From Anaerovoracaceae bacterium (GTDB lineage: Bacteria; Bacillota; Clostridia; Peptostreptococcales; Anaerovoracaceae), in contig JAZUDB010000134.1 in assembly GCA_045639385.1 (NCBI GenBank), forward strand, positions 1 through 31,848: a stretch of 31,848 nt of DNA, written 5' to 3'. Positions within the stretch are counted from its first letter, which is position 1; each line of letters opens with the position of its first letter. This document shows, piece after piece, positions 3 through 14,046 of the stretch. Under the pieces are notes generated by a model. It saw only the letters and a list, made by a program, of their open reading frames with translations, was not told the DNA's origin and made no database searches. The position numbers were made by a program, and so were the translations under genes.

Positions 3-3000
3 TACGCTTCCGCGGCGGACAAGGCTGCCGGAATCGTTTCTACCCAGTACCTGGCCCCCACGGATCCGCGCTGCACATTCTGGGACGCTGTGGCAACAAG
101 TCCGTCCGTCAATGCCACGGTTCTGAGCGATTCCATCTGGGAAGATTTCAACGGGAAGGGTGTGGAAGCGCAGGCATCGCAGCGCATATTCTTCCAGATG
201 TTCAGCTGGGAACTGAGCGGAAGCATTTACGATAACTACAAGTACTTTACCACCGAAGCGTTCGATACGGACGGCGGTAAGAATCATTACGATTATTCCG
301 GCGGTTCCTGGTATTACAACGGCGCGGACAAGGGATACTATCACGATTTCAGCAATTATCATGAGCATGCCAACAATCTGCTGAGCCAGTTTGGCCCGGG
401 TACCCGGATTCTTGCAACCCCGGACTATATCGAAGAATTCCCCACCCCGGCGCGGAAGACCACCAACCCGGAACCGTTTGCTTCCGGCAGCACGGAATAT
501 ATCATCTTCCGTTCCGAATACGGTATTTATGAGCTGGAAAGCCTGGATTTCTACTGCGAAACAGCTTCCGCCAACGAAGCCTGGCTGATTGAGGGCTGGG
601 CCCTTTACGAGACAAACTGGAATGAAAACTTCCGTTACGGCGTGAACAACTATGCTTTCGTGTCCGACCGCATGGCCTTCGACATCGATTACGACAGATG
701 TCTGGGCAAGAGCACTTCCGACAATATGCAGGAAGGCTTTAACGTGCTGGATTCCGACTATTACCGCTTTGTAAAGGATACCTCCGCCAACCGGAATGCA
801 AAGGATTCCATCGGCGGCCAGCTGTACTCCCACTTCTTTACGGTTCCCTCGGGCAGCGTCAATCAGTCCCCGGCAGCCTATACCTTTGAAATCAATCTGA
901 TGGACAGCTACGGCGCCGGCATTGAAGGCTTCAACCGGACGCCGGCTCCCGGAGACAAACTGGAGGTTTCCGAAGCGCTGACCGCAGCCATCGAATACAA
1001 AGATGCAGCGGGCCACGCCCAGGAACTGTCGGTTCCGGTGATTACCAACGCCATATTTGAATATACCTTCCCCCTGGAGGAAAGTGCCGCATTATCCGAG
1101 AAGAACGTAAAGTATAAGAACATTCAGAACGGCACCAATCTGCTTTCCTACGCACAGCAGGGCGACAGCATCGTCTTCTCCGTAATCATGCCTTCGAAGT
1201 CGGAGATTACCAAAGTCACGCTGCACTATGAGAATCCAATGGATTACGAGGATTCCATTCTGGTGGAGGACATCCGGGTTTACGAAACCCCGGACACCCG
1301 CTTTGTGGACAGAGAAAAGCTTTCCAATGAAGCGGATCTGGAGATGACCGTTACCCCCAGAGGCAATCTGGTTTACGAAAGCGACCAGATTTCCGGCGGC
1401 GCTATTCTGGAAAACGTAAACTCCGAATTTGAGTTTGAGATGAAGCCTGCGGGTACGGGCGCAAAGAATTATACCGATTACAACGACACCTACCTGATCA
1501 GCTTTAAGACCTCTTCCGTGAACTTTACGGATACCCAGGCCGACGATATTACCGTCCGCTTTGCCTATCTGGACGAGATCACCGGAAAGGAAATGCTCTC
1601 CGCAGACTACAACCTGAAGGAAGTCTGCATGGATTTCTGTGGATACAACCCGGCTTACGATGCGGTTACCGGAACGATTACCGACGGCAGCTACGTCTAC
1701 AATATGGGCCTGGGCCGCACGCTTCGCTTCCTGGTGGAACTGAAGAACGTGAGCCGCTTTACCAAGATGATCTTTATGAAGGGCGATATTGTGGATGAAT
1801 GGCAGATCGATACCATCGAAATCCGCAGCGTCAGCAAGGTGGGCGAACGAATCATGACCCCCCTGGACAATGTAACGGCAGGGGATCTGATTCTCAACCG
1901 CATCTACGACAGAGACGTCAGCGGCAGCGTCATTTACCACAAGGAAAATGTGAACCTGTTGATCCAGCCCAACGCCACCGTGGAATTTGCGCTGGAAAAC
2001 GCCAACGTGGATATCGACATCGAGAACAGAGATTACCGCGAATACTACTACAAGATGGATTACGAAACCGCAATTTCCAACCTGCACTTTAACGAGGCAG
2101 CCTGGAATTACGAGGTTCGGGTCCACGTTTCCCCCAACAGCATCCTGACCTCCGCCAACAAGGGCGATTCCAACGGATGCGGTTCCAACAACCTGTACTA
2201 CTTCCAGCTGGTATTTACCGACGGAACCTCCGGCTACGTGCTGTCCAATGCGCTGCTCAAATCCGACTGCTTCCGTGCCGGCGAAACGGAGACCTTCACC
2301 ATTTCCGTGAACGAAAGCATGGGTGACGTTGTGGCCGTGAAGATCATTCCGGACGACGTGTCCGAGGCCTGCGACCCGCTGGACAAGCTGTCCATCGACT
2401 ATATCGAGGTCATCAAGGACAACCCCAAGACCCCCAACAAGCGCTACGTCTGCAGCGACGTGGGCTGGGTCAAGCTGGAATACCAGGATACGGAAGAATC
2501 CGTGGACAATCCGGGCCGCAGCGAATCCGAAATCGTTACCATTTGCCCGGTTTCCTCCAGCGCCTACATGCTGGATCTGGAATTCAACATCGCCATCGGC
2601 GATTATATGGACAATAACGGCATTGAACGGGATCAGTTCTACGGCAACATGACCGCAGACATTACCTACGTAACCAGCTCCGGCGAGCGGAAGGTCATCC
2701 GCGATTATCCGGTGGTGGAAAAGATGTACGAATACGCGGGAAAGACCCCGAAGACCGCGGTTTATGCCGACGGCACCGGAACGGAGCGCTACATCAGTGA
2801 CCGCGACTTTATGTTCCGCAGCGGCAAGATTGCCCGCTTCGTGGTATCCGTGGACGATGCCACCAGCATTGAAAGCATCTCCTTAAACGGTATGGGCTAC
2901 GAAAACACCTGTCTGCCCATTGCGGGAATTTCCGTGAAGATCCTGAAATCCAGCGGCCGTCTGATTATCAACAAAGATGGCGATTACGAAGTGGTTTACG

Positions 3001-4712
3001 ACGTGGAGCCGGCGCTGCTGACGGATGAGGTTCCGGGCAGAACCTTCCCCCAGCTGTACAGCTTCCCCGCCAACAAATATACGTCCTACAAGTTCACCTT
3101 CGGAATCAACGATATCGGAGAACTGGACGAATCCACCCGCCTGGAGGAGATCATCAGCAGAGTTCCCCAGTCTGCCAACGATAAGCTGAACGTGTATCTG
3201 TACATGGGTTCCGGCACGCCTACTCCGGCAGAGGGTGACTATAACCTGACGGTAAAGACCTACTACGCTTCCGTCGCCACAACCGATCTTTACCTGTCGG
3301 CCTGCGACAGCCTGAAGGCAAAGCGGGACAACGGACAGCTGGTGCTCTACGCCATGGATCTGTCCGCCGCCAATATGACCGTTCTCAGCAACGTGCAGGT
3401 GGTGTCCGACTCCATCGGACGGCAGGACATCAAGGTGGAGTACGGTATTATCCAGCAGGTGAGAAACGGTGTGGTCATTCATACCTATAAGATCAAGTTC
3501 GGCGGCAATATGCCGGCGTACACAGCCAAGGGCATTTCCATGCAGAACTCCACATCGTCTCTGGGCTTCGAGCAGGTGGTATCCGTTGCACTGGGCGAGG
3601 ATACGGTACCCGCAAAGCTGGTGGAAGAAAAGTACGATATTGCACTGGCCATCCGCTACACCAGCAGCAACGCCTCCGATAATACGGTCTTCGTTTCTCC
3701 GTATGTGTTTGCAACGGACAGCGGCGACGGCACCATTGCCCCGGGCAAGATGCTGGAATTCCGCTTCCATGAAGGCTACGTACGGGATATCGTGGGCATC
3801 GACGTGGTTGCCCTGAACGGAATCAACGCATCCCTGGCCAACGCCAACGTGCTCTGCTACAAGGCCGACAGCGCCGGAAGCAATGAACTGGTCGGCTGGT
3901 ACAGTATTGACCGTTCCGGTAAGATTTACAGCGATGTTACCAAGTTCACCGTAACAGACAACAGCATGAACGGACCCAAGACCTTAAAGCGGGTCAACTT
4001 CAGCTTTAAGACCATGGAATACTCCGACAATATCGACTGCGGCGGAACGGTGCCCATCAAGATGATCATCAATTACAAGGATGTAAATAAGAACATCAAA
4101 ACCGCTGCTATTTCCGATATCCGGAAATATGCTGCCGGCAGCCAGAGCTTTACTGCCGGACAGACCGCTGCCATTTCCTTCTTCCTGAAGGGCGTGGACA
4201 GCATCAACTACATTAAACTGATTCCTTACGACAACGTAAGTGCCAACAGAGCCACCTGGAATCTGGAGAGCATCCGGTTCAACATCGACGGCAGCGGCGA
4301 TAACAGTACCCATACCATTATCGCAAACCGTACCCTGGTAGAGACCACGGACGATGGTACTACGCCGGACGACGCCAACGATATCTTCAACCTTTCCGGC
4401 GTGAAGATGACCCTGACCGCCACGGCAGGCGGCCGGGCCTATGCGGGCGACGAGCTGGATTCTCCGGTAAGCATGAAGGTCGGCGAAGAGATCAACGTTC
4501 TGCCGGTGATTAACGGTTCCGTAACCGGAGCCTACTACGTGCGGGTGGAAAAGAGAATCGGCAGCAGCTACGCCCAGACGGGCAGCACCCAGGAACTGGC
4601 GGGAACAGGCTTCCGCTTTACCCCGGCCGAGAGCGGCTATTACCGGCTGATCTTTACGGTGGTGGAAAATCCGGCCGTCGAAAAGACCGTCAACCTTACC
4701 GTAAATCCGTAA
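3..4712 (+). CDS. Very large putative exported protein (5' end outside window) with repeated PLAT/LH2-like beta-sandwich modules and a C-terminal Ig-like domain
   Basis: Frame is open from nt 3 (YASAADKAAG...) to TAA at 4712, so the GTG at 90 is not the true start. Host-like codon usage. Recurring motif F-x-x-G...F-x-(V/I)...(I/V)-x-x-I-x-(I/L)...(W/L)-x-I-x-x-I-x-V, e.g. CFRAGETETFTISVNESMGDVVAVKIIPDD...LSIDYIEV. Confidence 0.85.
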   Translation, partial: YASAADKAAGIVSTQYLAPTDPRCTFWDAVATSPSVNATVLSDSIWEDFNGKGVEAQASQRIFFQMFSWELSGSIYDNYKYFTTEAFDTDGGKNHYDYSGGSWYYNGADKGYYHDFSNYHEHANNLLSQFGPGTRILATPDYIEEFPTPARKTTNPEPFASGSTEYIIFRSEYGIYELESLDFYCETASANEAWLIEGWALYETNWNENFRYGVNNYAFVSDRMAFDIDYDRCLGKSTSDNMQEGFNVLDSDYYRFVKDTSANRNAKDSIGGQLYSHFFTVPSGSVNQSPAAYTFEINLMDSYGAGIEGFNRTPAPGDKLEVSEALTAAIEYKDAAGHAQELSVPVITNAIFEYTFPLEESAALSEKNVKYKNIQNGTNLLSYAQQGDSIVFSVIMPSKSEITKVTLHYENPMDYEDSILVEDIRVYETPDTRFVDREKLSNEADLEMTVTPRGNLVYESDQISGGAILENVNSEFEFEMKPAGTGAKNYTDYNDTYLISFKTSSVNFTDTQADDITVRFAYLDEITGKEMLSADYNLKEVCMDFCGYNPAYDAVTGTITDGSYVYNMGLGRTLRFLVELKNVSRFTKMIFMKGDIVDEWQIDTIEIRSVSKVGERIMTPLDNVTAGDLILNRIYDRDVSGSVIYHKENVNLLIQPNATVEFALENANVDIDIENRDYREYYYKMDYETAISNLHFNEAAWNYEVRVHVSPNSILTSANKGDSNGCGSNNLYYFQLVFTDGTSGYVLSNALLKSDCFRAGETETFTISVNESMGDVVAVKIIPDDVSEACDPLDKLSIDYIEVIKDNPKTPNKRYVCSDVGWVKLEYQDTEESVDNPGRSESEIVTICPVSSSAYMLDLEFNIAIGDYMDNNGIERDQFYGNMTADITYVTSSGERKVIRDYPVVEKMYEYAGKTPKTAVYADGTGTERYISDRDFMFRSGKIARFVVSVDDATSIESISLNGMGYENTCLPIAGISVKILKSSGRLIINKDGDYEVVYDVEPALLTDEVPGRTFPQLYSFPANKYTSYKFTFGINDIGELDESTRLEEIISRVPQSANDKLNVYLYMGSGTPTPAEGDYNLTVKTYYASVATTDLYLSACDSLKAKRDNGQLVLYAMDLSAANMTVLSNVQVVSDSIGRQDIKVEYGIIQQVRNGVVIHTYKIKFGGNMPAYTAKGISMQNSTSSLGFEQVVSVALGEDTVPAKLVEEKYDIALAIRYTSSNASDNTVFVSPYVFATDSGDGTIAPGKMLEFRFHEGYVRDIVGIDVVALNGINASLANANVLCYKADSAGSNELVGWYSIDRSGKIYSDVTKFTVTDNSMNGPKTLKRVNFSFKTMEYSDNIDCGGTVPIKMIINYKDVNKNIKTAAISDIRKYAAGSQSFTAGQTAAISFFLKGVDSINYIKLIPYDNVSANRATWNLESIRFNIDGSGDNSTHTIIANRTLVETTDDGTTPDDANDIFNLSGVKMTLTATAGGRAYAGDELDSPVSMKVGEEINVLPVINGSVTGAYYVRVEKRIGSSYAQTGSTQELAGTGFRFTPAESGYYRLIFTVVENPAVEKTVNLTVNP

Positions 4713-4751
4713 AACAACAGATTTTATCAGGCAGCAGAGGAGCTGCAGAAA

Positions 4752-5930
4752 ATGAAAAGAATCAAAAGAACAGCTTTTATCATCGGAATACTTCTTCTGT
4801 GCCTTGCACTTTGTTCCTGCGGGGCCACTGAGCAGAGCGACGAACGTCTGAAAGCAAGACTGCGGGGCAGCGGGTCGGCAAAACTGAAGCTGACCATCTT
4901 CTCCGAGGTGCCGGAGGGCTACGAGTGGACCGCCTCCATGCCGGAGACCGCCGACGGCGCCCCCTATACCGTGGAACTGGACAACTCCAAGCCGGGTACC
5001 GACCGTTTCGTGATTACCGCGAACCGGGAAGGCACCAGCACCCTGACGGTTTCTTACCGGAACAAAGACGGGGAAGTCTACGGAAGCGTTAAAATGCTTC
5101 TGATTACGGACAGCAAGCGGAAGATGGAATGCGCCAGCATGCTCGTCAGCGGCAGGGACGATTTTAAGCAGTACGAAGACGAAAACCTGTCCGGAGACGA
5201 TTTTGCCATCAGCAACTACGAGAGCCGGGTCAAAGACATTAAGCTGATTTCCAAGGACGGCATCTGGAAGATCGGTGCCTACGACGCATCCGTAATCCAT
5301 CCGGAAGATACCGGCCTGGAAGACGATTATTCCACTTTCCAGGTTTCCGGCCTGAAGACCGGTGTCTCGGACCTGGTGCTTTACAACGAAAACGCCGGCC
5401 TGCAGGTAATCATCAGCTTTGCGGTAACGGAAGATACCGAAGCCCAGAAGGCCTCCGGCTCCGGAGAACCTGTGTATAAGGTGGATATTGCGGGCACGAA
5501 AACCGAACCCTATCAGAAGACCGAAGACACTGAGTATCAGCAGGGTCGTGGGGATGCACTGGAAAAGATCCGGGCCTTTGCCGCGGATCCGATCATCTCG
5601 AAAGATGCGGTGTTTGACGATTCCCGGCTGCATGTGGAGGAAAAAAGCCTGGAGCTGCAGCTGGAGTACAAGGGCTTCCTGATGTTCTGCAACGCCACCA
5701 AGGGCAAGAGCCTGAATTCCTGCATCAAGGACTATATGAACGGCATCAGCGTAAAGTCGGAAAAGACCATCACCGCAGCCGGTCTGGACGTGCAGTGCAA
5801 GTTTGCGGAAGACGGCTTTGCCGTTGCCTTCCTGGAGAAGGACGATATCGTGTGGATGCTGCTGGGCGCCGGCGAGTTTACGGAGGACAGCTTTACCGCG
5901 CTGATCACCGAGTTTATCGAAAGCAAATAG
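4752..5930 (+). CDS. Lipoprotein with N-terminal chagasin/inhibitor I42-like Ig-fold domain(s)
   Basis: Basic N-terminus, hydrophobic stretch and lipobox-like LCSC. Motif PEGYEW...GTDRFVITANREGTSTLTVSYR. RBS-like GAGGAG upstream. CDS is solid; domain call is tentative. Confidence 0.75.
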   Translation: MKRIKRTAFIIGILLLCLALCSCGATEQSDERLKARLRGSGSAKLKLTIFSEVPEGYEWTASMPETADGAPYTVELDNSKPGTDRFVITANREGTSTLTVSYRNKDGEVYGSVKMLLITDSKRKMECASMLVSGRDDFKQYEDENLSGDDFAISNYESRVKDIKLISKDGIWKIGAYDASVIHPEDTGLEDDYSTFQVSGLKTGVSDLVLYNENAGLQVIISFAVTEDTEAQKASGSGEPVYKVDIAGTKTEPYQKTEDTEYQQGRGDALEKIRAFAADPIISKDAVFDDSRLHVEEKSLELQLEYKGFLMFCNATKGKSLNSCIKDYMNGISVKSEKTITAAGLDVQCKFAEDGFAVAFLEKDDIVWMLLGAGEFTEDSFTALITEFIESK

Positions 5931-6090: not shown

Positions 6091-7011
6091 TTACTTCTTC
6101 CGGCGGGAGTAGATGTCGTCGATGCGTTTTAAAAAGAGATAGTCGAAATCCCGGGAATGCCGGCCGGTCAGGCTGCGGATTTCCTCGGTTTCGAAGCTTT
6201 CGCAGGGGCAGATCCGGTACCGCTTAAAAAGGTTCAGCTTCCGGTTGTTGAAGCGGGGTTCGAATACCACCACCGGCAGGAAGGTGGCCTTTGCCTCCGG
6301 ATCTTTCAGCACTCTGTGGGCCAGCAGGGTCATGGTGGGATGGATGTGACCCTCGCCCCGGGCGGCAGCCTCGTCGGGGAAGACGGTGGCCTGGCGGGTG
6401 GCGGAGGGCGCCAGCAGAATGATGGCATTTCGTTTGGCCATGTCCTGGGCGGTGCGCATATAGTTTTTCTCGAAAACGGTCTTGTATTTCTGGACCAGGG
6501 CCAGTTTTTCCGGGTTGTCCGCAAAACGGTCCTTCAGTTTGCCCTCGGTTTTGGGGGTGATCATGGGAACGATGGACACGCCCAGACGGGCCAGCTTGGG
6601 AATGTCCGGGGTCAGGGTTTCGTACCAGGGAATATTCACCGGGAAAAGGAATTCCCGGTCCGGATAGGCTTCGAAGGCCAGGTAGGTCAGGCGGAAAATC
6701 TCTCCCAGGGAGGGGTGATTAAAGCCCATGACGATGCAGTGGGCCCGCTGAGGGAATTCGTGCAGCAGCTTGGCCGGTGCGGTGGGCTTTAAAAGATCGC
6801 AGGCCAGGCGGCGCAGTCTGCGGTCGTCCGGTTCCAGGCAGATGGTGTCGATCAGGCCGCGGCAGACCGCTCCCGTGGCGTCCATTTCGTCCAGAAGCTC
6901 TCCGGCGCCGATGCTCCGCAGGAAGGACAGATTGTTTTCGTTCAGCTGAGCAAGAAAGTCCTTGCCGGAGATTTCTTTCAGCTGATCCGCTGTGATGGTG
7001 TTTTTCTGCAT
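6091..7011 (-). CDS. Putative lysophospholipid acyltransferase (PlsC/LPLAT superfamily)-like protein
   Basis: Block I-like FNHPSLGE (HX4E), block III-like LLAPSATR and block IV-like FLPVVV. Confidence 0.6.
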   Translation of the reverse strand: MQKNTITADQLKEISGKDFLAQLNENNLSFLRSIGAGELLDEMDATGAVCRGLIDTICLEPDDRRLRRLACDLLKPTAPAKLLHEFPQRAHCIVMGFNHPSLGEIFRLTYLAFEAYPDREFLFPVNIPWYETLTPDIPKLARLGVSIVPMITPKTEGKLKDRFADNPEKLALVQKYKTVFEKNYMRTAQDMAKRNAIILLAPSATRQATVFPDEAAARGEGHIHPTMTLLAHRVLKDPEAKATFLPVVVFEPRFNNRKLNLFKRYRICPCESFETEEIRSLTGRHSRDFDYLFLKRIDDIYSRRKK

Positions 7012-7057
7012 AGTTTATCCTTTGATGCGGATTGCTCCGCGTTTTTTTTGCGTTTTT

Positions 7058-7714
7058 CTACCACGCGATGGGTTCTTTGCCCAGCCCGGTCAGAATTTCG
7101 TTGACCTTCTTAAAATGTCCGTTGCCGAAGAAGCCGTTGTAGGCGGACAGGGGCGAGGGATGGGCGGATTCCAGAATAAAGTGCCGCGGGTTGGTGATCA
7201 GGGCCTTCTTCTTCCGGGCGTAGCCGCCCCAGAGCACGAAGATCACCGGGTCTTTCCGGTCGTTTAAAATGCGGATGACCGTATCGGTAAAGGTTTCCCA
7301 GCCTTTGCCCGCGTGGGAGCCTGCACTGCCGGCGCGCACGGTAAGCACCGCGTTTAAGAGCAGCACGCCCTGGGCGGTCCAGTCCTCCAGACTGCCGCTT
7401 TCCCGGTGAATGCCCAGCTCGGCTTCCAGCTCCTTGTAGATGTTTACCAGCGAGGGGGGCTTTTTAAAGTCCGCAGGCACGGAAAAGCACAGTCCCTGGG
7501 CCTGACCCGGTTCATGGTAGGGGTCCTGCCCCAGAATCACCACCTTCACGTCCTCGTAGGAGGTAAATTTGAAGGCGTTGAAAATATTGTACATATTGGG
7601 GTAGATTGTCCGCGTGGCGTATTCCGTTTTCAAAAACTCCCGCAGCTGCAGGTAATAATCTTTTTTAAATTCTTCCGAAAGAATTTCATCCCAGGAATTT
7701 CCGATGTTGACCAT
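7058..7714 (-). CDS. ung: Uracil-DNA glycosylase (family 1)
   Basis: Catalytic motifs VILGQDPYH and SAHPSPLSA, plus GVLLLNAVLTVR. Confidence 0.97.
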   Translation of the reverse strand: MVNIGNSWDEILSEEFKKDYYLQLREFLKTEYATRTIYPNMYNIFNAFKFTSYEDVKVVILGQDPYHEPGQAQGLCFSVPADFKKPPSLVNIYKELEAELGIHRESGSLEDWTAQGVLLLNAVLTVRAGSAGSHAGKGWETFTDTVIRILNDRKDPVIFVLWGGYARKKKALITNPRHFILESAHPSPLSAYNGFFGNGHFKKVNEILTGLGKEPIAW

Positions 7715-7783
7715 ACAATTCTTCCTCCGAATAGCTTATAATATAATTAATCAATTTTCCCACAAACCAGAAAGAAGGTCAAT

Positions 7784-8398
7784 ATGAGTAATTTTGTTAT
7801 CGGAATCTGCGGCGGCTCCGGCAGCGGAAAAACCACCCTTGCTGCGGAAATCCGGGATTGCCTGGGCGACAATGCGGTGCTGGTCAGCATGGATTCGTTC
7901 TATAAGTATCAGCCCAACACCACCTACGAGCAGCGCTGCCAGACCAACTACGACCATCCCAACGCTTTCGATGCGGACATCCTGGTCAAATGCCTGAAGG
8001 ATTTGAAGGAGGGCAGAGATACGGAGGTTCCCATTTACGATTTTACCATTCATAACCGCAGCGACGCCCCCTGGCAGCAGGTGAAAAGTGCGCCGGTCAT
8101 CATTATCGAAGGCATTCTGCTGTTTGCTTTCCCGGAAGTGGTGGAACTTCTGGACTGCAAGATCTTTGTGGACACCGATGCGGACATCCGGGTGCTTCGC
8201 CGGGTGGAGCGGGACATGGAAGAGCGGGGCAGAAGCCTGCGCTCCGTGGTGGACCAGTACCTGGAAACCGTGCGCCCCATGCACATGCAGTTCGTGGAGC
8301 CCTACAAGGCCATTGCGGACATTATCGTGCCGGAAAGCCGCAGAAACCCCATGGCTTTGGATATTATCGTAAATTCCGTTTTCCGCAGGATTCCCTAA
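7784..8398 (+). CDS. udk: Uridine kinase
   Basis: P-loop IGICGGSGSGKTT, NYDHPNAFD, IIIEGIL, RDMEERGRS. Confidence 0.95.
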   Translation: MSNFVIGICGGSGSGKTTLAAEIRDCLGDNAVLVSMDSFYKYQPNTTYEQRCQTNYDHPNAFDADILVKCLKDLKEGRDTEVPIYDFTIHNRSDAPWQQVKSAPVIIIEGILLFAFPEVVELLDCKIFVDTDADIRVLRRVERDMEERGRSLRSVVDQYLETVRPMHMQFVEPYKAIADIIVPESRRNPMALDIIVNSVFRRIP

Positions 8399-8450
8399 GG
8401 AAACGTCCGGAATCTGTGATATGCCGATTAAACGCGAAAATAAAAGACAA

Positions 8451-8484
8451 GAATGTTCGGTGCGTGCCGAACATTCATTTTTTT
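8451..8484 (+). terminator. Intrinsic terminator after udk
   Basis: Perfect 10-bp stem GAATGTTCGG/CCGAACATTC, 6-nt loop, then A plus a T-run. Confidence 0.85.
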
Positions 8485-8575
8485 CGGGTCCTTTTTCCGG
8501 GGAATTGCACGGGGCTTTCTTTTCAGTTCTATGCAAGTCCTTTATAATCTATATGTTATAGATTCGGAGTACAAT

Positions 8576-9151
8576 ATGAAGCTTTTAGAAGACAGAATCA
8601 TTCAGGACGGAACCTGTATCGGAACCGAAATCGTGAAGGTGGATTCCTTTTTGAACCACCAGCTGGACGTGGCTTTGTTCGACGCCATGGGCGAAGAATT
8701 CGCAAGACTTTTTGCGGCGGAAAAGCCCAGCAAGATTCTTACGGTGGAGTCTTCCGGCATTCCCATCGCCTGCGCGGCAGCCAGAGCCCTGGGCAATCTT
8801 CCCGTGGTATTCGCCAAGAAGAGTGCACCCAGCACCATGATTGACGGAGCCTACACCTCCGACGTGATGTCCTTTACCAAGGGCACCGTTTCCACGATCC
8901 GGGTGGCAAAGCCCTTCCTCTCCCCAGAGGACCGGATTCTGATCATCGACGATTTTCTTGCTTCCGGCGCGGCAGGCATGGGTCTTCTGGACCTGATCGC
9001 GCAGGCCGGGGCCAAATGCGTAGGCTTTGGTGCCGCCATCGAAAAGGCCCACCAGGGCGGCGAAGAAAAGCTGCGGGAAGCCGGAATCAAAGTGGAATGT
9101 TTAGCGGTAATCGCGTCAATCAAAGACGGTAAAATAGAGTTCAAACATTAA
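8576..9151 (+). CDS. xpt: Xanthine phosphoribosyltransferase
   Basis: ATG at 8576 after GGAG RBS (the ORF-track start at 8453 is over-extended). Motifs KVDSFLNHQLD, ILTVESSGIP, VFAKK and PRPP loop LIIDDFLASG. Confidence 0.93.
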   Translation: MKLLEDRIIQDGTCIGTEIVKVDSFLNHQLDVALFDAMGEEFARLFAAEKPSKILTVESSGIPIACAAARALGNLPVVFAKKSAPSTMIDGAYTSDVMSFTKGTVSTIRVAKPFLSPEDRILIIDDFLASGAAGMGLLDLIAQAGAKCVGFGAAIEKAHQGGEEKLREAGIKVECLAVIASIKDGKIEFKH

Positions 9152-9165
9152 TTAAAGGAGAAAAA

Positions 9166-10353
9166 ATGAAAAAAGCATTAGCAATCGTTCTCGCACTGAT
9201 CATGGTATTCAGCCTTGCAGCATGCGGAAAGAAGGAACCGGAAGTTAAGACAGTCAAGATCGGTATGGTCTGCATCGGCAACCCGGGTCTTGCATACGAC
9301 TCTAACTTCATCAATGCAGCAGAAGCTGCAGCAGAAACCCTTAAGGCACAGGGTCAGAATGTAGAATGGATTTACAAGTATGACATCAAAGAAGATGCCG
9401 CAGCAGTAAAGACCGCCAACGAAGAGCTGGTAGAAGCAGGCTGTGTCATGGTATTTGACAACTCCTACGGATTCGAACCGTACATGCTGGAAGTTGCAAA
9501 GGAAAATCCGGAAGTTCAGTTCATCGGCATGACCAACTGCGGCGGATGCCTCGACGCTCTGGACAACACCTCCAACGCATTTGCAAGAATCTATGAAGCC
9601 AGATATCTTGCCGGTGTTGCAGCAGGCATGAAGCTGAACGAACTGGGCGAAACCAAGCTCGGTTACGTAGGTGCATTCACATTCGCAGAAGTTATCTCCG
9701 GATACACTGCATTCTATCTCGGCGCAAAGAGCGTATGCCCGGAAGCAACCATGGACGTTATGTTCGTAGGTTCCTGGTCTGATGCAGAAAAAGAAGCACA
9801 GGCAGCAGAAACTCTGATTTCCCAGAACGGATGCAAGGTAATCTCTCAGCACTCCGACAACGTTACTCCGGCAACAAAGGCTGAAGAACTGGGTGCATTC
9901 CACGTTGGATACAACAAGGATATGACCACAGAAGCTGCAAAGGCTTCCATCATCTCCGCAAGAATCGACTGGACCAAGTACTTTGAATATGCTCTCGGCA
10001 AAGCAGTCAAGGGCGAAAAGCTGGATCCGGACTACTGCCACGGCCTTGCAGAAGGCGAAGTTGCTCTGACCACCCTGAACACTGCCATCGCAGCACCGGG
10101 AACCGCAGAAGCAATCGAATCCGCTAAGGCAGCCATCATCGGCGGAAGCGTTAAGCTCTTCAACATGAACGACGTAACCGTAGGCGGCGAACACATCAAG
10201 GAAGCATACGCCATCGATACCGACGGAGACTTCGTTGCAGACAAGGATATGTGCATCACCGCAGAAGGAATCTTCGAAGAATCCAAGTACCAGTCCGCAC
10301 CGTATTTCGGTCTGAGAATCGACGGAATTACACTGGTTAACGAAGCATACTAA
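9166..10353 (+). CDS. BMP-family ABC transporter substrate-binding lipoprotein (likely purine/nucleoside)
   Basis: Lipobox LAAC. Motifs YEARYLAGVAAG, LGYVGAF, FYLGAKSV, SWSDAEKE. AAGGAG RBS. Follows xpt. Confidence 0.92.
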   Translation: MKKALAIVLALIMVFSLAACGKKEPEVKTVKIGMVCIGNPGLAYDSNFINAAEAAAETLKAQGQNVEWIYKYDIKEDAAAVKTANEELVEAGCVMVFDNSYGFEPYMLEVAKENPEVQFIGMTNCGGCLDALDNTSNAFARIYEARYLAGVAAGMKLNELGETKLGYVGAFTFAEVISGYTAFYLGAKSVCPEATMDVMFVGSWSDAEKEAQAAETLISQNGCKVISQHSDNVTPATKAEELGAFHVGYNKDMTTEAAKASIISARIDWTKYFEYALGKAVKGEKLDPDYCHGLAEGEVALTTLNTAIAAPGTAEAIESAKAAIIGGSVKLFNMNDVTVGGEHIKEAYAIDTDGDFVADKDMCITAEGIFEESKYQSAPYFGLRIDGITLVNEAY

Positions 10354-10368
10354 TACACTGTAATCATA

Positions 10369-10410
10369 AAGGAAGGGGGCGAGCCGCAGAGGCTTTCCCT
10401 CTTTCTTGTT
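10369..10410 (+). terminator. Imperfect intra-operon hairpin between binding-protein and ATPase genes
   Basis: Purine-rich AAGGAAGGGGG..GAGCC pairs imperfectly with GGCT..TTCCCTCTTTCTT. Confidence 0.5.
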
Positions 10411-10439
10411 CTTAATGGAAAAAATAGGAGAATATAGTT

Positions 10440-11984
10440 TTGGAAACAACTTATTCCAAACCGCACGCCATAGATATGAAGGGCATTACCAAGCGCTTCG
10501 GAACCAATGTGGCAAACGACAATATTGACCTGTATGTGAACAAGGGCGAAATCATGGCCATTCTGGGCGAAAACGGTTCCGGAAAGACCACGCTGATGAA
10601 CATGCTGGCAGGCATTTATTTCCCGGACGAGGGAGAAATCTACGTAGACCAGAAGCCTGTCACCATCCGGAGCCCCAAAGATGCCTTCGACAACGGCATC
10701 GGCATGATTCACCAGCACTTTATGCTGGTAGACGTTTTTACCGCCGCGGAAAACATTATTCTGGGTCTGGACGACAGCGACAAGTTCGACCGGAAGCAGG
10801 CTGCGGCAAAGGTCAAGGAAATCGCCGACAAATACGGCTTTGAACTGGACCCCAATAAGAAAGTATATGACATGTCTGTTTCCGAAAAGCAGACAGTTGA
10901 AATAATCAAAGTACTGTACCGCGGTGCGGATCTGCTGATCCTGGACGAACCCACCGCCGTACTGACGCCCCAGGAAATTTCTCATCTCTTCGACGTGATG
11001 CGGGCCATGAAGGCGGACGGCAAGTCCATCATCATTATTACCCACAAACTGAACGAGGTAATGGAGATCTCCGACGTGGTGGCAGTGCTGCGCAAGGGAA
11101 AGCACATTAAGACCGTGCGCACCGAAAACACCAATCCGGAAGCCCTCACCGAAATGATGGTGGGCAAGAAGGTGGAGCTGAACATTTACCGCACCGAACC
11201 CAAGAACCCCCAGGCAAGGCTGTCCATCGCCGGTTTAACGGTAAAAGACAACGAGGGTGTAAAGAAGCTGGACGACGTGGGTTTCATCGCCTACGGCGGC
11301 GAAATTCTGGGTATTGCGGGCATTGCAGGCTCCGGTCAGAAGGAACTGCTGGAAGCCATTGCGGGGCTTCGCGGCGTTTCTTCCGGTTCCATCATCTACA
11401 GTCCCGAGGGAAAAACCGCTCAGCAGCTGGTGGGCAAGAGCCCCATGGAAATCCGGGATGCGGGGGTCGCCATGGCCTTCGTGCCGGAAGACCGTCTTGG
11501 CATGGGCCTGGTGGGCGACATGGGCATGACCGACAACATGATGCTGCGCTCCTGGAACAAGGGCAAGGGCATCTTTGTAGACCGCAAGGAGCCGGAAAAA
11601 CTGGCAAAAGAAGTTTACGACTTCCTGGAAGTTGTAACCCCGGACATCGATTATCCGGTGCGGAAGCTTTCCGGCGGCAACGTACAGAAGGTTCTGGTGG
11701 GCCGCGAAATCGCTTCCGGACCTTCCGTGCTGATGACCGCTTATGCGGTCCGCGGCCTGGATATCAATACTTCGTATATTATTTATGACCTGATGGCGGC
11801 ACAGAAAGCCAAGGGCGTGGCGGTTCTCTACGTAGGCGAGGACCTGGACGTACTGCTGGCCCTCTGCGACAAGATTCTGGTGCTCTGCGGCGGAAAGGTT
11901 TCCGGCGTAGTGGATGCCAGAAGTACCACTAAGGAAGAAATCGGACTGTTAATGACCTCTGTAGGCGGAAAGGAGAGCAACTAA
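10440..11984 (+). CDS. ABC transporter ATP-binding protein, two ABC domains (CUT2/nucleoside type)
   Basis: TTG start after AGGAG. Walker A GENGSGKT, Walker B LILDEPT, second domain with LSGGNVQK and a degenerate Walker B. Confidence 0.95.
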   Translation: METTYSKPHAIDMKGITKRFGTNVANDNIDLYVNKGEIMAILGENGSGKTTLMNMLAGIYFPDEGEIYVDQKPVTIRSPKDAFDNGIGMIHQHFMLVDVFTAAENIILGLDDSDKFDRKQAAAKVKEIADKYGFELDPNKKVYDMSVSEKQTVEIIKVLYRGADLLILDEPTAVLTPQEISHLFDVMRAMKADGKSIIIITHKLNEVMEISDVVAVLRKGKHIKTVRTENTNPEALTEMMVGKKVELNIYRTEPKNPQARLSIAGLTVKDNEGVKKLDDVGFIAYGGEILGIAGIAGSGQKELLEAIAGLRGVSSGSIIYSPEGKTAQQLVGKSPMEIRDAGVAMAFVPEDRLGMGLVGDMGMTDNMMLRSWNKGKGIFVDRKEPEKLAKEVYDFLEVVTPDIDYPVRKLSGGNVQKVLVGREIASGPSVLMTAYAVRGLDINTSYIIYDLMAAQKAKGVAVLYVGEDLDVLLALCDKILVLCGGKVSGVVDARSTTKEEIGLLMTSVGGKESN

Positions 11985-13070
11985 ATGAACGAAAAAACTC
12001 CCCTGATTCGTCTGGCAAAGCGGGAAAACGCCAGCAAAAAGCAGATCTGGACCACCCGTCTCTGCGCCTTCCTGCTGGCCCTGCTCATCGGCATGCTGAT
12101 TTATGCGCTGGTGGGAGCCAACCCGCTGGAAGCTTATCAAACCATTTTCTTTGCCAGTTTTAAGAGTAAAATCGGCAGACGGCAGATTCTCCGGAACCTG
12201 ACCACCCTGCTGTGCGCCGCACTGGCACTGGCCCCCTGCTTTAAGATGAAGTTCTGGAACTGCGGCGCCGAAGGTCAGATTACCATGGGCGCCATGGCAG
12301 CCAGTTATTTTGCCCTTTACTGGGCGGACAAGCTTCCCCGGCCCCTGCTTCTGCTGGTGATGGCAATTGCCGCGCTGGTACTGGGCGCCTTCTGGGCAGC
12401 CATCCCGGCCTTCTTTAAGGCAAACTGGAACACCAACGAAACCCTCTTCACCCTGATGCTCAACTACATCGCCATCGGCATCGTGGCCTGGCTCCAGGGC
12501 GGTCCCTGGGAAGGCGTTCCCGGCTCTCAGATCATCCCCATGTTCAAGGAAAGCGCCGTACTGCCCAAGCTCTTCGGTGTACATATCGGCTGGATCGTGG
12601 TGCTGCTGCTGGTTGGCGTGATGTACGTTTACATGAACAAGACCAAGCACGGTTATGAAATTATGGTTCTGGGCGAATCCGAGAACACGGCCCGCTATGC
12701 AGGCATGAACGTAAAGAAAATTACCATCCGCACCATAGCGCTTTCCGGCGCCATCTGCGGACTGGCGGGATATTTCCTGGCGGCAGGCGCCAACGGTACC
12801 CTGAACTCCTCGGTAGCCGGCGGCGTGGGCTTTACCGCCATTACCGTTGCCTGGCTGTCTCAGCTGAACCCCTTCGCCATGACCCTGGTAGCGCTGCTGA
12901 TCGTGGTGCTGGAAAAAGGCGCAGGCTCCGTGTACACCACCCTGGGCGTACCGTCTACCGCATCCAACGTTATTACGGGAATCATTCTCCTGTGCATGCT
13001 GGGCTGCGAATTCTTTATCAATTACCGGTTGATTTTCAGAGGAAAGAAGGAGGCGGAAAATGAGCTTTAA
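11985..13070 (+). CDS. ABC transporter permease (BPD_transp_2 type)
   Basis: Multiple TM segments, motif FWNCGAEGQ, and GESENTARYAGMN (EAA-like loop). Confidence 0.93.
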   Translation: MNEKTPLIRLAKRENASKKQIWTTRLCAFLLALLIGMLIYALVGANPLEAYQTIFFASFKSKIGRRQILRNLTTLLCAALALAPCFKMKFWNCGAEGQITMGAMAASYFALYWADKLPRPLLLLVMAIAALVLGAFWAAIPAFFKANWNTNETLFTLMLNYIAIGIVAWLQGGPWEGVPGSQIIPMFKESAVLPKLFGVHIGWIVVLLLVGVMYVYMNKTKHGYEIMVLGESENTARYAGMNVKKITIRTIALSGAICGLAGYFLAAGANGTLNSSVAGGVGFTAITVAWLSQLNPFAMTLVALLIVVLEKGAGSVYTTLGVPSTASNVITGIILLCMLGCEFFINYRLIFRGKKEAENEL

Positions 13071-14046
13071 TTACATGGGCTTTATCAATGCGGCTGTTGT
13101 GGCCGGCATTCCCATCCTCTTCGGAACCTCCGGAGAGATCCTGACCGAAAAATCCGGCAACCTGAACCTGGGCGTGGAAGGCCTCATGTACATGGGCGGC
13201 GCCTTCGGACTGATTGGGACCTATATTTATCAGCAGGCTGCGGGCGCAGCTGCCGTGGGCTGGCTGGCCGTTGTGATTGCACTGGTCTCCGCCTTCGTGT
13301 TTGGCGCCCTGGGCTCTTTGATCTACAGTTTCCTGACCGTAACCTTAAGGGTCAACCAGAACGTGACCGGTCTGGCGCTGACCATCTTCGGCACCGGTTT
13401 AGGCAAGTTCGTCTGCGAAATCATGCGTCAGAGAGAAGGGGGACAGATTTTCATTCAGAATTATCTGCGCACCAGCTTCTCCGACCCGGTACTGCCGAAA
13501 TTTCTGCAGGACATTCCCTTCCTGGGGGACCTGCTGTTTAAGTACAACATCTTCGTATATCTGGGCTTTGTGCTGGCACTGGCCCTGTACTGGTTCATCG
13601 AAAAGACCCGCAAGGGCCTTTATCTGCAGGCCGTGGGCGAATCGCCGGCCACCGCAGACTCCGCGGGCATTAACGTGGGCAAGTACAAGTATCTGGCCAC
13701 GATTATCGGCGGCGGCATTTCCGCCATCGGCGGCGTGGTTTACGTGATGACCACCGCAGGCACCGTGTGGAGCCCCCACACCCTGGACGGCAAGGGCTGG
13801 ATTTCCGTAGCCCTGGTTATCTTCTGCCTGTGGGACACCGCCAAGGCCATCTGGGGATCTCTGGTGTTCGGCGCGTTAAACCTGATGTTCATGTGGGTGC
13901 CCCTGTCCTGGCTGCCCACCCAGATCTATCAGATCGTTCCCTACATCGTAACCGTTGTGGTACTGATTCTGGTATCCATCCGTCAGAGAAGGGAGGACCA
14001 GCCCCCTGCGGCACTGGGCCTGGCCTACTTCCGGGAAGAGCGGTAA
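13060..14046 (+). CDS. ABC transporter permease (BPD_transp_2 type)
   Basis: GEILTEKSGNLNLGVEG, AVGESPATADSAGINV and GKGWISVALVIF. Overlaps the previous stop. Confidence 0.93.
   Translation: MSFNYMGFINAAVVAGIPILFGTSGEILTEKSGNLNLGVEGLMYMGGAFGLIGTYIYQQAAGAAAVGWLAVVIALVSAFVFGALGSLIYSFLTVTLRVNQNVTGLALTIFGTGLGKFVCEIMRQREGGQIFIQNYLRTSFSDPVLPKFLQDIPFLGDLLFKYNIFVYLGFVLALALYWFIEKTRKGLYLQAVGESPATADSAGINVGKYKYLATIIGGGISAIGGVVYVMTTAGTVWSPHTLDGKGWISVALVIFCLWDTAKAIWGSLVFGALNLMFMWVPLSWLPTQIYQIVPYIVTVVVLILVSIRQRREDQPPAALGLAYFREER

Follow-up and report, generated by a model that had tools for sequence, protein, structure and literature searches.

The window analysed here comprises bases 1 to 31,848 of contig C134, from a fragmented metagenome-assembled genome (MAG) of an Anaerovoracaceae bacterium (1.68 Mb, 217 contigs, 87% complete). 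At its left end, a 5'-truncated gene for a giant protein with multiple PLAT domains occupies positions 3..4712 of the + strand. It encodes 1,569 amino acids (aa) in the window and ends with the stop codon at 4710-4712. The giant is built of eight anciently diverged PLAT/LH2 beta-sandwich modules (D0 to D7), with short beta linkers between them and a C-terminal immunoglobulin (Ig)-like domain. Its downstream partner, P0004, is a lipoprotein-like protein of 392 aa (4752..5930, + strand) that begins 40 nucleotides (nt) past the giant's stop. P0004 has an N-terminal hydrophobic segment and a cysteine, and no Pfam or NCBIfam family was found for it.

The reading frame of the giant is open from the first bases of the contig, and the contig end is the sole cause of the truncation. 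The nearest relative is P0002, encoded by an Anaerovoracaceae MAG of another genus; it is 1,675 aa long and 64% identical over its whole length. The full-length giant is, by this orthologue, probably about 1,675 aa long. P0002 is longer by about 106 N-terminal residues, which comprise its signal peptide, an acidic stretch and the initial strands of D0. In a public run, a DNA contig reaches 1,421 nt further upstream of the window, and the 30 nt just before position 3 of the window, read in frame, encode NCSKYIIVRY, which matches P0002. The initial annotation of this DNA, made from its letters alone, had advised retrieving the upstream contig and had placed any anchor or catalytic domain outside the window. 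Because P0002 and the upstream contig show that only the contig end truncates the gene, there is no such hidden domain. Signal peptides are present across the giant's family, and the giant itself is predicted to be exported by Sec from the signal seen in these orthologues. Its C-terminus, when read directly, contains no LPXTG motif, transmembrane (TM) segment or hydrophobic tail, and a Pfam scan of the giant gave no SLH, dockerin or sortase-type match, in agreement with the initial annotation. No catalytic domain was found anywhere in the family with Pfam (the protein and 24 homologues) or NCBIfam, which gave no meaningful match to these proteins. Also, an Rfam scan of the window returned no matches.

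The modules follow one another on the + strand, and the borders given by the initial annotation are shown in parentheses after ours. D0 (3..623) is PLAT-like; its first strands lie outside the window, and the occupancy profile shows a large, poorly conserved insert at aa 30-160. Its C-terminal half spans 477-623, or aa 159-207 (480-615). It is followed by the linker X0 (624..872), which is unlike the D modules and is modelled with low confidence (predicted local distance difference test, pLDDT, 36-69 in model residues 1-85). D1, at 873..1292 (876-1284), is modelled at a pLDDT of about 90, and its family consensus keeps a Y-G-A-G-I-E loop that resembles G-A-G-T-D, the canonical PLAT loop. X1 (1293..1472) is a small linker with three strands in the modelled secondary structure and is also unlike the D modules. 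D2 covers 1473..1991, with a core at aa 495-612, or 1485-1838 (1488-1832). In the AlphaFold2 model, its last strands are prolonged into a long beta-hairpin at aa 600-647, with about 27 residues per arm. X2 (1992..2102), delimited by alignment occupancy and the model, is the remainder of the linker ahead of D3. The canonical PLAT domain D3, at 2103..2483 (2109-2417), is the most conserved module of the family and is joined by a short conserved linker, X3 (2484..2567), to D4 at 2568..2954 (2568-2943). D4 is modelled at a pLDDT above 90, and its eight strands and single helix follow the order seen in D2. X4 (2955..3173) is a small five-strand beta linker domain, whose hidden Markov model (HMM) is kept in most family members examined. 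D5, at 3174..3554 (3183-3460), is degenerate in sequence and precedes D6, at 3561..3959 (3573-3860), and D7, at 3984..4340 (3990-4287). The Ig-like domain, of the filamin or macroglobulin (MG) type, occupies 4398..4709. Most module starts agree with the initial annotation within a few codons, and the 3' ends of D3, D5 and D6 are placed 22-33 codons later here.

A tandem module had been proposed from the letters of the window, and the repeat proved to be real, yet very divergent. A self-BLASTP search of the giant returned zero internal matches, and hhalign with three-sequence profiles gave nothing significant; therefore, deep profiles were needed. When 1.84 billion representatives were searched exhaustively with HMMER, 276 related clusters (50% identity) emerged, 235 of them with E <1e-30, and the matches were typically colinear across most of the query of about 1,150 residues. 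A profile search of a 5.8-billion-protein index returned P0002 alone. We aligned 118 homologues, cut the alignment at the initially annotated modules and the segments between them, and compared all the pieces by hhalign. The strongest links were D2-D4 (97.7%, E 2e-12, 116 columns), D4-D7 (96.9%), D1-D2 (94.5%), D2-D7 (94.3%), D1-D4 (94.2%) and D1-D7 (92.1%). These were followed by D2-D6 (89.7%), D6-D7 (84%), the C-terminal half of D0 with D4 (78%, score 36.9), D3-D7 (67.6%) and D5-D6 (36%, score 24.8). As a control, reversed template profiles gave at most 8.8% and a score of at most 19.8 in 56 comparisons. The linker segments and the C-terminal domain reached no more than 12% against the modules, overlap artefacts aside. 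All the module links except D5-D6 stand well above the reversed-profile control, and the eight copies fall into one network. Across the pairwise alignments, the proposed motif F-x-x-G...F-x-V...I-x-x-I-x-(I/L)...W/L-x-(I/L)-x-x-I-x-V stays in register.

The identification of the modules as PLAT/LH2-like is supported by both Pfam and structure prediction, two of the checks that the initial annotation had suggested. PF01477 matched the whole giant with 27.9 bits against a gathering cut-off of 23, with the best stretch at aa 721-823, and it also matched 16 of 24 homologues (best E 1.8e-9). Since D3 alone scores just 19.8 bits on PF01477, the other modules contribute a weak signal. Two AlphaFold2 models were built with 61-sequence alignments: aa 205-830 (pLDDT 81.5, predicted template modelling score, pTM, 0.69) and aa 831-1569 (pLDDT 88.4, pTM 0.64). 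VIA-align was then used to compare the modules with Foldseek's PDB candidates. In these models, five modules are superposable on solved PLAT domains: D3 on that of 5-lipoxygenase (14.4, root-mean-square deviation 1.6, 103 aligned), D2 on the C-domain of Clostridium perfringens alpha-toxin (12.0, 112 aligned), D7 on that of 15-lipoxygenase (12.6), D5 on that of a plant lipoxygenase (12.2, 113 aligned) and D6 on the C-domain of pancreatic lipase-related protein 1 (10.9, 107 aligned). D1 and D4 were absent among the fold matches listed, the lists being filled by other domains. Both are probably PLAT modules by their homology to D2 and D7 (hhalign 92-98%) and, for D4, by strand order. D0 is likewise assigned as PLAT-like by the alignment of its C-terminal half to D4. 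A search of the ESM Atlas with D4 and D1 gave no usable match, or a 0.82 match to DUF4465 that is inside the noise range. Searches of PDB sequences with phmmer and with hmmsearch using the family profile gave only noise and the de novo designed beta protein AlBeta86.

Next, the architecture was examined across the family. When the HMMs of the pieces were run against 151 family proteins, a single order was seen throughout, D0-X0-D1-X1-D2-X2-D3-X3-D4-X4-D5-D6-D7-C, with individual linker, D0 or C-terminal HMMs missed in some homologues and the Ig-like domain following D7 where detected. Longer members gain N-terminal sequence or extra Ig-like copies only, always at the ends. The module positions are thus old and orthologous, and this is no recently expanding repeat. 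Mean pairwise identity is 49% in D3 versus 20-31% elsewhere, and the ends are the least conserved (about 20%). Within D3, the loop G-(D/N)-C-G-S-x-N and the F-Y-F-Q-L-V-F that comes after it hardly vary among about 118 homologues (window 2163-2471, aa 721-823). This loop is conserved far above the rest of the giant and is a candidate interface or site. For homologues of 3,100 aa, a fusion of VirB4 with the giant was considered and rejected; they contain no P-loop family, and their surplus is N-terminal sequence of unknown kind.

A locus scan of GTDB species genomes, using 7 closer sequences, found 28 loci, all in uncultured gut, faecal or rumen Clostridia of the Anaerovoracaceae, Acutalibacteraceae, Oscillospiraceae and Lachnospiraceae. 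Clustering of open reading frames (ORFs) showed that, at 26 of the 26 loci with upstream DNA, the gene immediately before the giant on the same strand encodes a VirB3/VirB4-like protein of about 1,300 aa. The gap between the two genes ranges from -248 to +431 nt, and their stop and start codons overlap in several loci. The VirB4 protein combines a VirB4 ATPase domain with two TM helices at its N-terminus, and it scores 554 bits on NF045975, the VirB4 model of the integrative and conjugative elements (ICEs) of Mycoplasma. Further upstream is a VirB6-like polytopic membrane protein (c2, 650-745 aa) that matches NF045848 and NF045889 (Mycoplasma ICE TM protein). The clusters also encode a bitopic protein (c3, about 310 aa) that carries a signal peptide and, at its C-terminus, a TM helix, as well as a VirD4 coupling ATPase that passes NF045973 and a VirB2-like T4SS_pilin (PF18895) protein. 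At many loci there are also genes for a STAS protein, an anti-sigma-type kinase (HATPase_c_2) and a SpoIIE-type PP2C phosphatase. The giant is encoded in one operon with VirB4, VirD4 and the VirB6-like protein, as expected of a component of a type IV secretion system (T4SS) cluster. The downstream partner of the giant is a lipoprotein or bitopic protein, P0004 in the window, and a P0004 homologue directly follows the giant in four loci (L002, L004, L005 and L010). In the genome of the window, contig C136 carries a pilin-like gene, a gene for a 536-aa secreted protein, VirD4, c3, c2 and VirB4 residues 1-861. This VirB4 fragment reaches the contig end and is 89% identical to the VirB4 of the orthologous locus L002, versus 64% for the giant and 45% for the lipoprotein. 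Contigs from two animal-gut metatranscriptomic runs cover most of the giant gene and P0004 at 95-100% identity, and the two genes are thus present in RNA libraries.

The linkage bears on the proposal of the initial annotation that the giant is a large lipid- or membrane-binding adhesin or effector. It is a large exported protein, which fits that proposal. Taken as a free-standing toxin, effector or adhesin that is a chance neighbour of T4SS genes, it would draw on the fact that PLAT targets membranes in clostridial alpha-toxin and lipases, which are among the fold matches, and on the Sec signal, which would make export independent of the T4SS. We regard this role as very improbable, however, since the virB4 linkage holds across four families at just 25-30% protein identity, with overlapping start and stop codons in several loci and no catalytic domain anywhere in the family. 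The fixed module order also argues against it.

Instead, we suggest that the giant is a large extracellular subunit of a monoderm T4SS-like machine, encoded directly after the VirB3/VirB4-like ATPase in a shared operon, and we put the probability of this at about 0.6. Invariant membership in an operon with VirB4, VirB6 and VirD4, together with the fixed module order, points to a machine subunit. The suggestion also draws on Sec export, the multi-sandwich architecture, the conserved centre and variable ends, and a position equivalent to that of CDS19 in the ICEs of Mycoplasma. In Mycoplasma agalactiae ICEA, the order is CDS5/VirD4 (670 aa), CDS7 (326 aa), CDS16 (357 aa), CDS17/VirB4 (928 aa), CDS19 (1,517 aa) and the surface lipoprotein CDS14 (524 aa), and disruption of CDS19 abolishes transfer (PMC6030558). 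The giant sits in the CDS19 slot, straight after the VirB4 homologue and ahead of a lipoprotein. The sizes are near (1,517 versus about 1,675 aa), and the neighbouring VirB4 and TM proteins match Mycoplasma ICE models of NCBIfam. The clostridial clusters differ from the Mycoplasma ICEs in adding the VirB2-like pilin and the partner-switching regulators. The standard Firmicutes T4SS order is VirB6/TrbL, VirB4 and a cell-wall hydrolase, of which the VirB6-like and VirB4 genes are retained here. In an ordinary Oscillospiraceae conjugative plasmid, an M23 peptidase follows virB4 and a MobP3 relaxase is nearby, whereas in these clusters the PLAT giant takes that slot; no hydrolase was recognised after virB4 and no relaxase nearby.

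A mechanism can be outlined on this basis. The giant would first be exported by Sec and form a rigid chain of beta-sandwiches outside the cell. It could dock on the membrane channel through D3, the most conserved central module, so that the chain would span the cell wall. The fast-evolving PLAT and Ig modules would then touch a partner cell at its membrane or surface, and the contact formed or stabilised in this way would be the one through which the T4SS acts.

Several points weigh against this reading. Its role as a machine subunit, its spanning of the wall and its membrane contact are inferences, and its PLAT modules may bind membrane or protein. The window itself contains none of the upstream genes, and the join between contigs C136 and C134 is inferred from the orthologous locus L002 rather than assembled. 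The PLAT assignment of D1, D4 and D0 comes from homology and not from the fold search. The likeness of the giant to CDS19 is one of position and size only, and no NCBIfam model matches the giant. No anchor is evident after cleavage of the signal peptide, and attachment would need a non-covalent mode. Also, contigs from RNA libraries can contain DNA.

The VirB4, VirD4 and VirB6-like genes are hallmarks of conjugation, and the giant might instead serve a true conjugative element as its mating adhesin. In that role it would bind the recipient membrane or wall during DNA transfer and lie outside the channel, comparable in function to enterococcal PrgB or to CDS14, the Mycoplasma lipoprotein. Gram-positive T4SSs are reported to depend on adhesins at the cell surface (PMC12102498), and the ends of the giant evolve fast. 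The family is also patchy, being carried by 3 of 120 other genera of Anaerovoracaceae. The copy in a genome of the same genus is just 35% identical, versus 64% for the copy in another genus. This pattern suggests that the cluster is subject to movement or rapid divergence, and horizontal movement would fit a mating adhesin. We nevertheless consider such an adhesin unlikely. With the relaxase search covering two families (PF03432 and PF02486), neither was found on the cluster contigs of five genomes (all MAGs) or anywhere in two of these genomes. No integrase, recombinase, relaxase or DDE transposase was seen among the flanking ORFs scanned, so that a relaxase with integration or replication genes linked to the T4SS, as expected of a conjugative element, was not found. 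To our knowledge, Mycoplasma ICEs likewise have no recognised relaxase. No PLAT giant was found by tblastn on the 72,556 plasmids of PLSDB, and none lies beside the nearest plasmid VirB4s (Spiroplasma, a Mycoplasmatota plasmid and an Oscillospiraceae plasmid). PrgB-type conjugation adhesins are similarly large surface proteins encoded with a monoderm T4SS and expected to make cell contact (PMC12102498). However, the giant lacks LPXTG and adhesin-type domains, the number of its modules does not vary as adhesin repeats typically do, and it is a core rather than an accessory part of the operon, as invariant there as virB4. Since the clusters have signalling genes of their own but none recognisable as DNA-processing, their function may not be conjugation.

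Another possible explanation is a wall-spanning scaffold or protective sheath for a VirB2-like pilus or channel, in which the PLAT modules are protein-protein blocks, as between the lipase PLAT domain and colipase, and make no lipid contact. The pilin gene in the cluster, the fixed architecture and the well-defined interdomain packing (pTM 0.64-0.69) suit a scaffold, and a most conserved module at the centre fits a conserved protein interface. We regard such a scaffold or sheath as improbable. It differs from the proposed T4SS subunit solely in the ligand proposed, and the variable termini suggest an external, diversifying partner. We judge the mating adhesin, the free toxin or adhesin and the protein-binding scaffold each to be less likely than a T4SS subunit.

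More tentatively, the T4SS subunit might be the extracellular conduit or contact arm of a non-conjugative, relaxase-less and phosphorylation-gated Gram-positive T4SS. With such a machine, gut and rumen Clostridia could deliver protein or DNA into neighbours in a contact-dependent way, with the PLAT array on the target membrane and CDS19 as a reduced homologue. This extended version is possible, though we would sooner bet against it than for it. We know of no Gram-positive extracellular core, similar to VirB7/9/10, that would take a monoderm T4SS through the thick wall to its partner cell. A family of at least 276 clusters at 50% identity, giant, exported, fixed in architecture and always beside VirB4, is a concrete candidate for this missing outer part, and it is carried by uncultured Clostridia that are abundant in gut and rumen.

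The giant would represent the first class of bacterial proteins made of PLAT domains in series, and it would for the first time connect PLAT with a secretion machine. Lipoxygenases, pancreatic and lipoprotein lipases and C. perfringens alpha-toxin have a single PLAT domain and a catalytic domain, whereas the giant has eight in series and no enzyme domain. It also differs from these enzymes in that most of its modules fall under Pfam detection and D2 bears the long beta-hairpin. LOXHD1, which is eukaryotic and cytoplasmic, is similarly an almost PLAT-only serial protein, with 15 tandem PLAT domains. The giant differs from it in being bacterial and predicted to be Sec-exported, with interspersed beta linkers, an Ig-like end and a gene in a secretion operon, and no sequence relationship was seen between the two beyond the domain superfamily. 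A literature search found no paper on the giant's family, nor any relevant one linking PLAT or partner switching with T4SS.

Some loci show further variation. In the two Acutalibacteraceae loci L007 (7070-7456) and L009 (7146-7454), a small STAS-domain gene (cluster c10) lies between virB4 and the PLAT giant, placing a partner-switching component inside the structural operon. In the Lachnospiraceae, STAS, HATPase_c_2 kinase and SpoIIE PP2C genes adjoin the T4SS genes (L016, 17381-19878; L033, 12415-14844). Just past the PP2C gene of the Lachnospiraceae cluster (L032, 705-4853), a 1,382-aa protein of no Pfam family is encoded, and after it come a gene for a membrane protein and another STAS-like ORF, the second. 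The neighbours of the Anaerovoracaceae clusters include a HAMP-PP2C membrane phosphatase and a response regulator. No sigma factor was seen. A Clostridia MAG from horse faeces has a second giant gene, of 1,647 aa and outside the family, between the PLAT giant and the lipoprotein (L006, 6124-11067). MAG RGIG2672 carries two pairs of VirB4 and PLAT giant on two contigs (L018 and L019) with identical match statistics, which may reflect duplication or assembly redundancy.

To the right of the lipoprotein gene, window positions 6091-14046 hold housekeeping-like genes. They encode an unknown protein of 306 aa (81% identical to the neighbour in L002), a uracil-DNA glycosylase, a ComF-like phosphoribosyltransferase and an ABC transporter of the PnrA/Bmp type, which comprises one ATPase and two permeases. 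As this segment is syntenic with L002, the right border of the cluster is common to two genera. Finally, long antisense ORFs overlie the PLAT gene in the window, at 3984..5633, 3..1016, 1092..2126 and 2883..3770 (all on the - strand), the longest of 549 aa. In relatives, whole-gene antisense ORFs of 1,793 and 1,936 aa are found on the - strand of L008 (7674-13055) and L017 (8172-13982). These antisense ORFs probably arise because the sense frame avoids the codons TTA, CTA and TCA, and the protein matches lie on the + strand.

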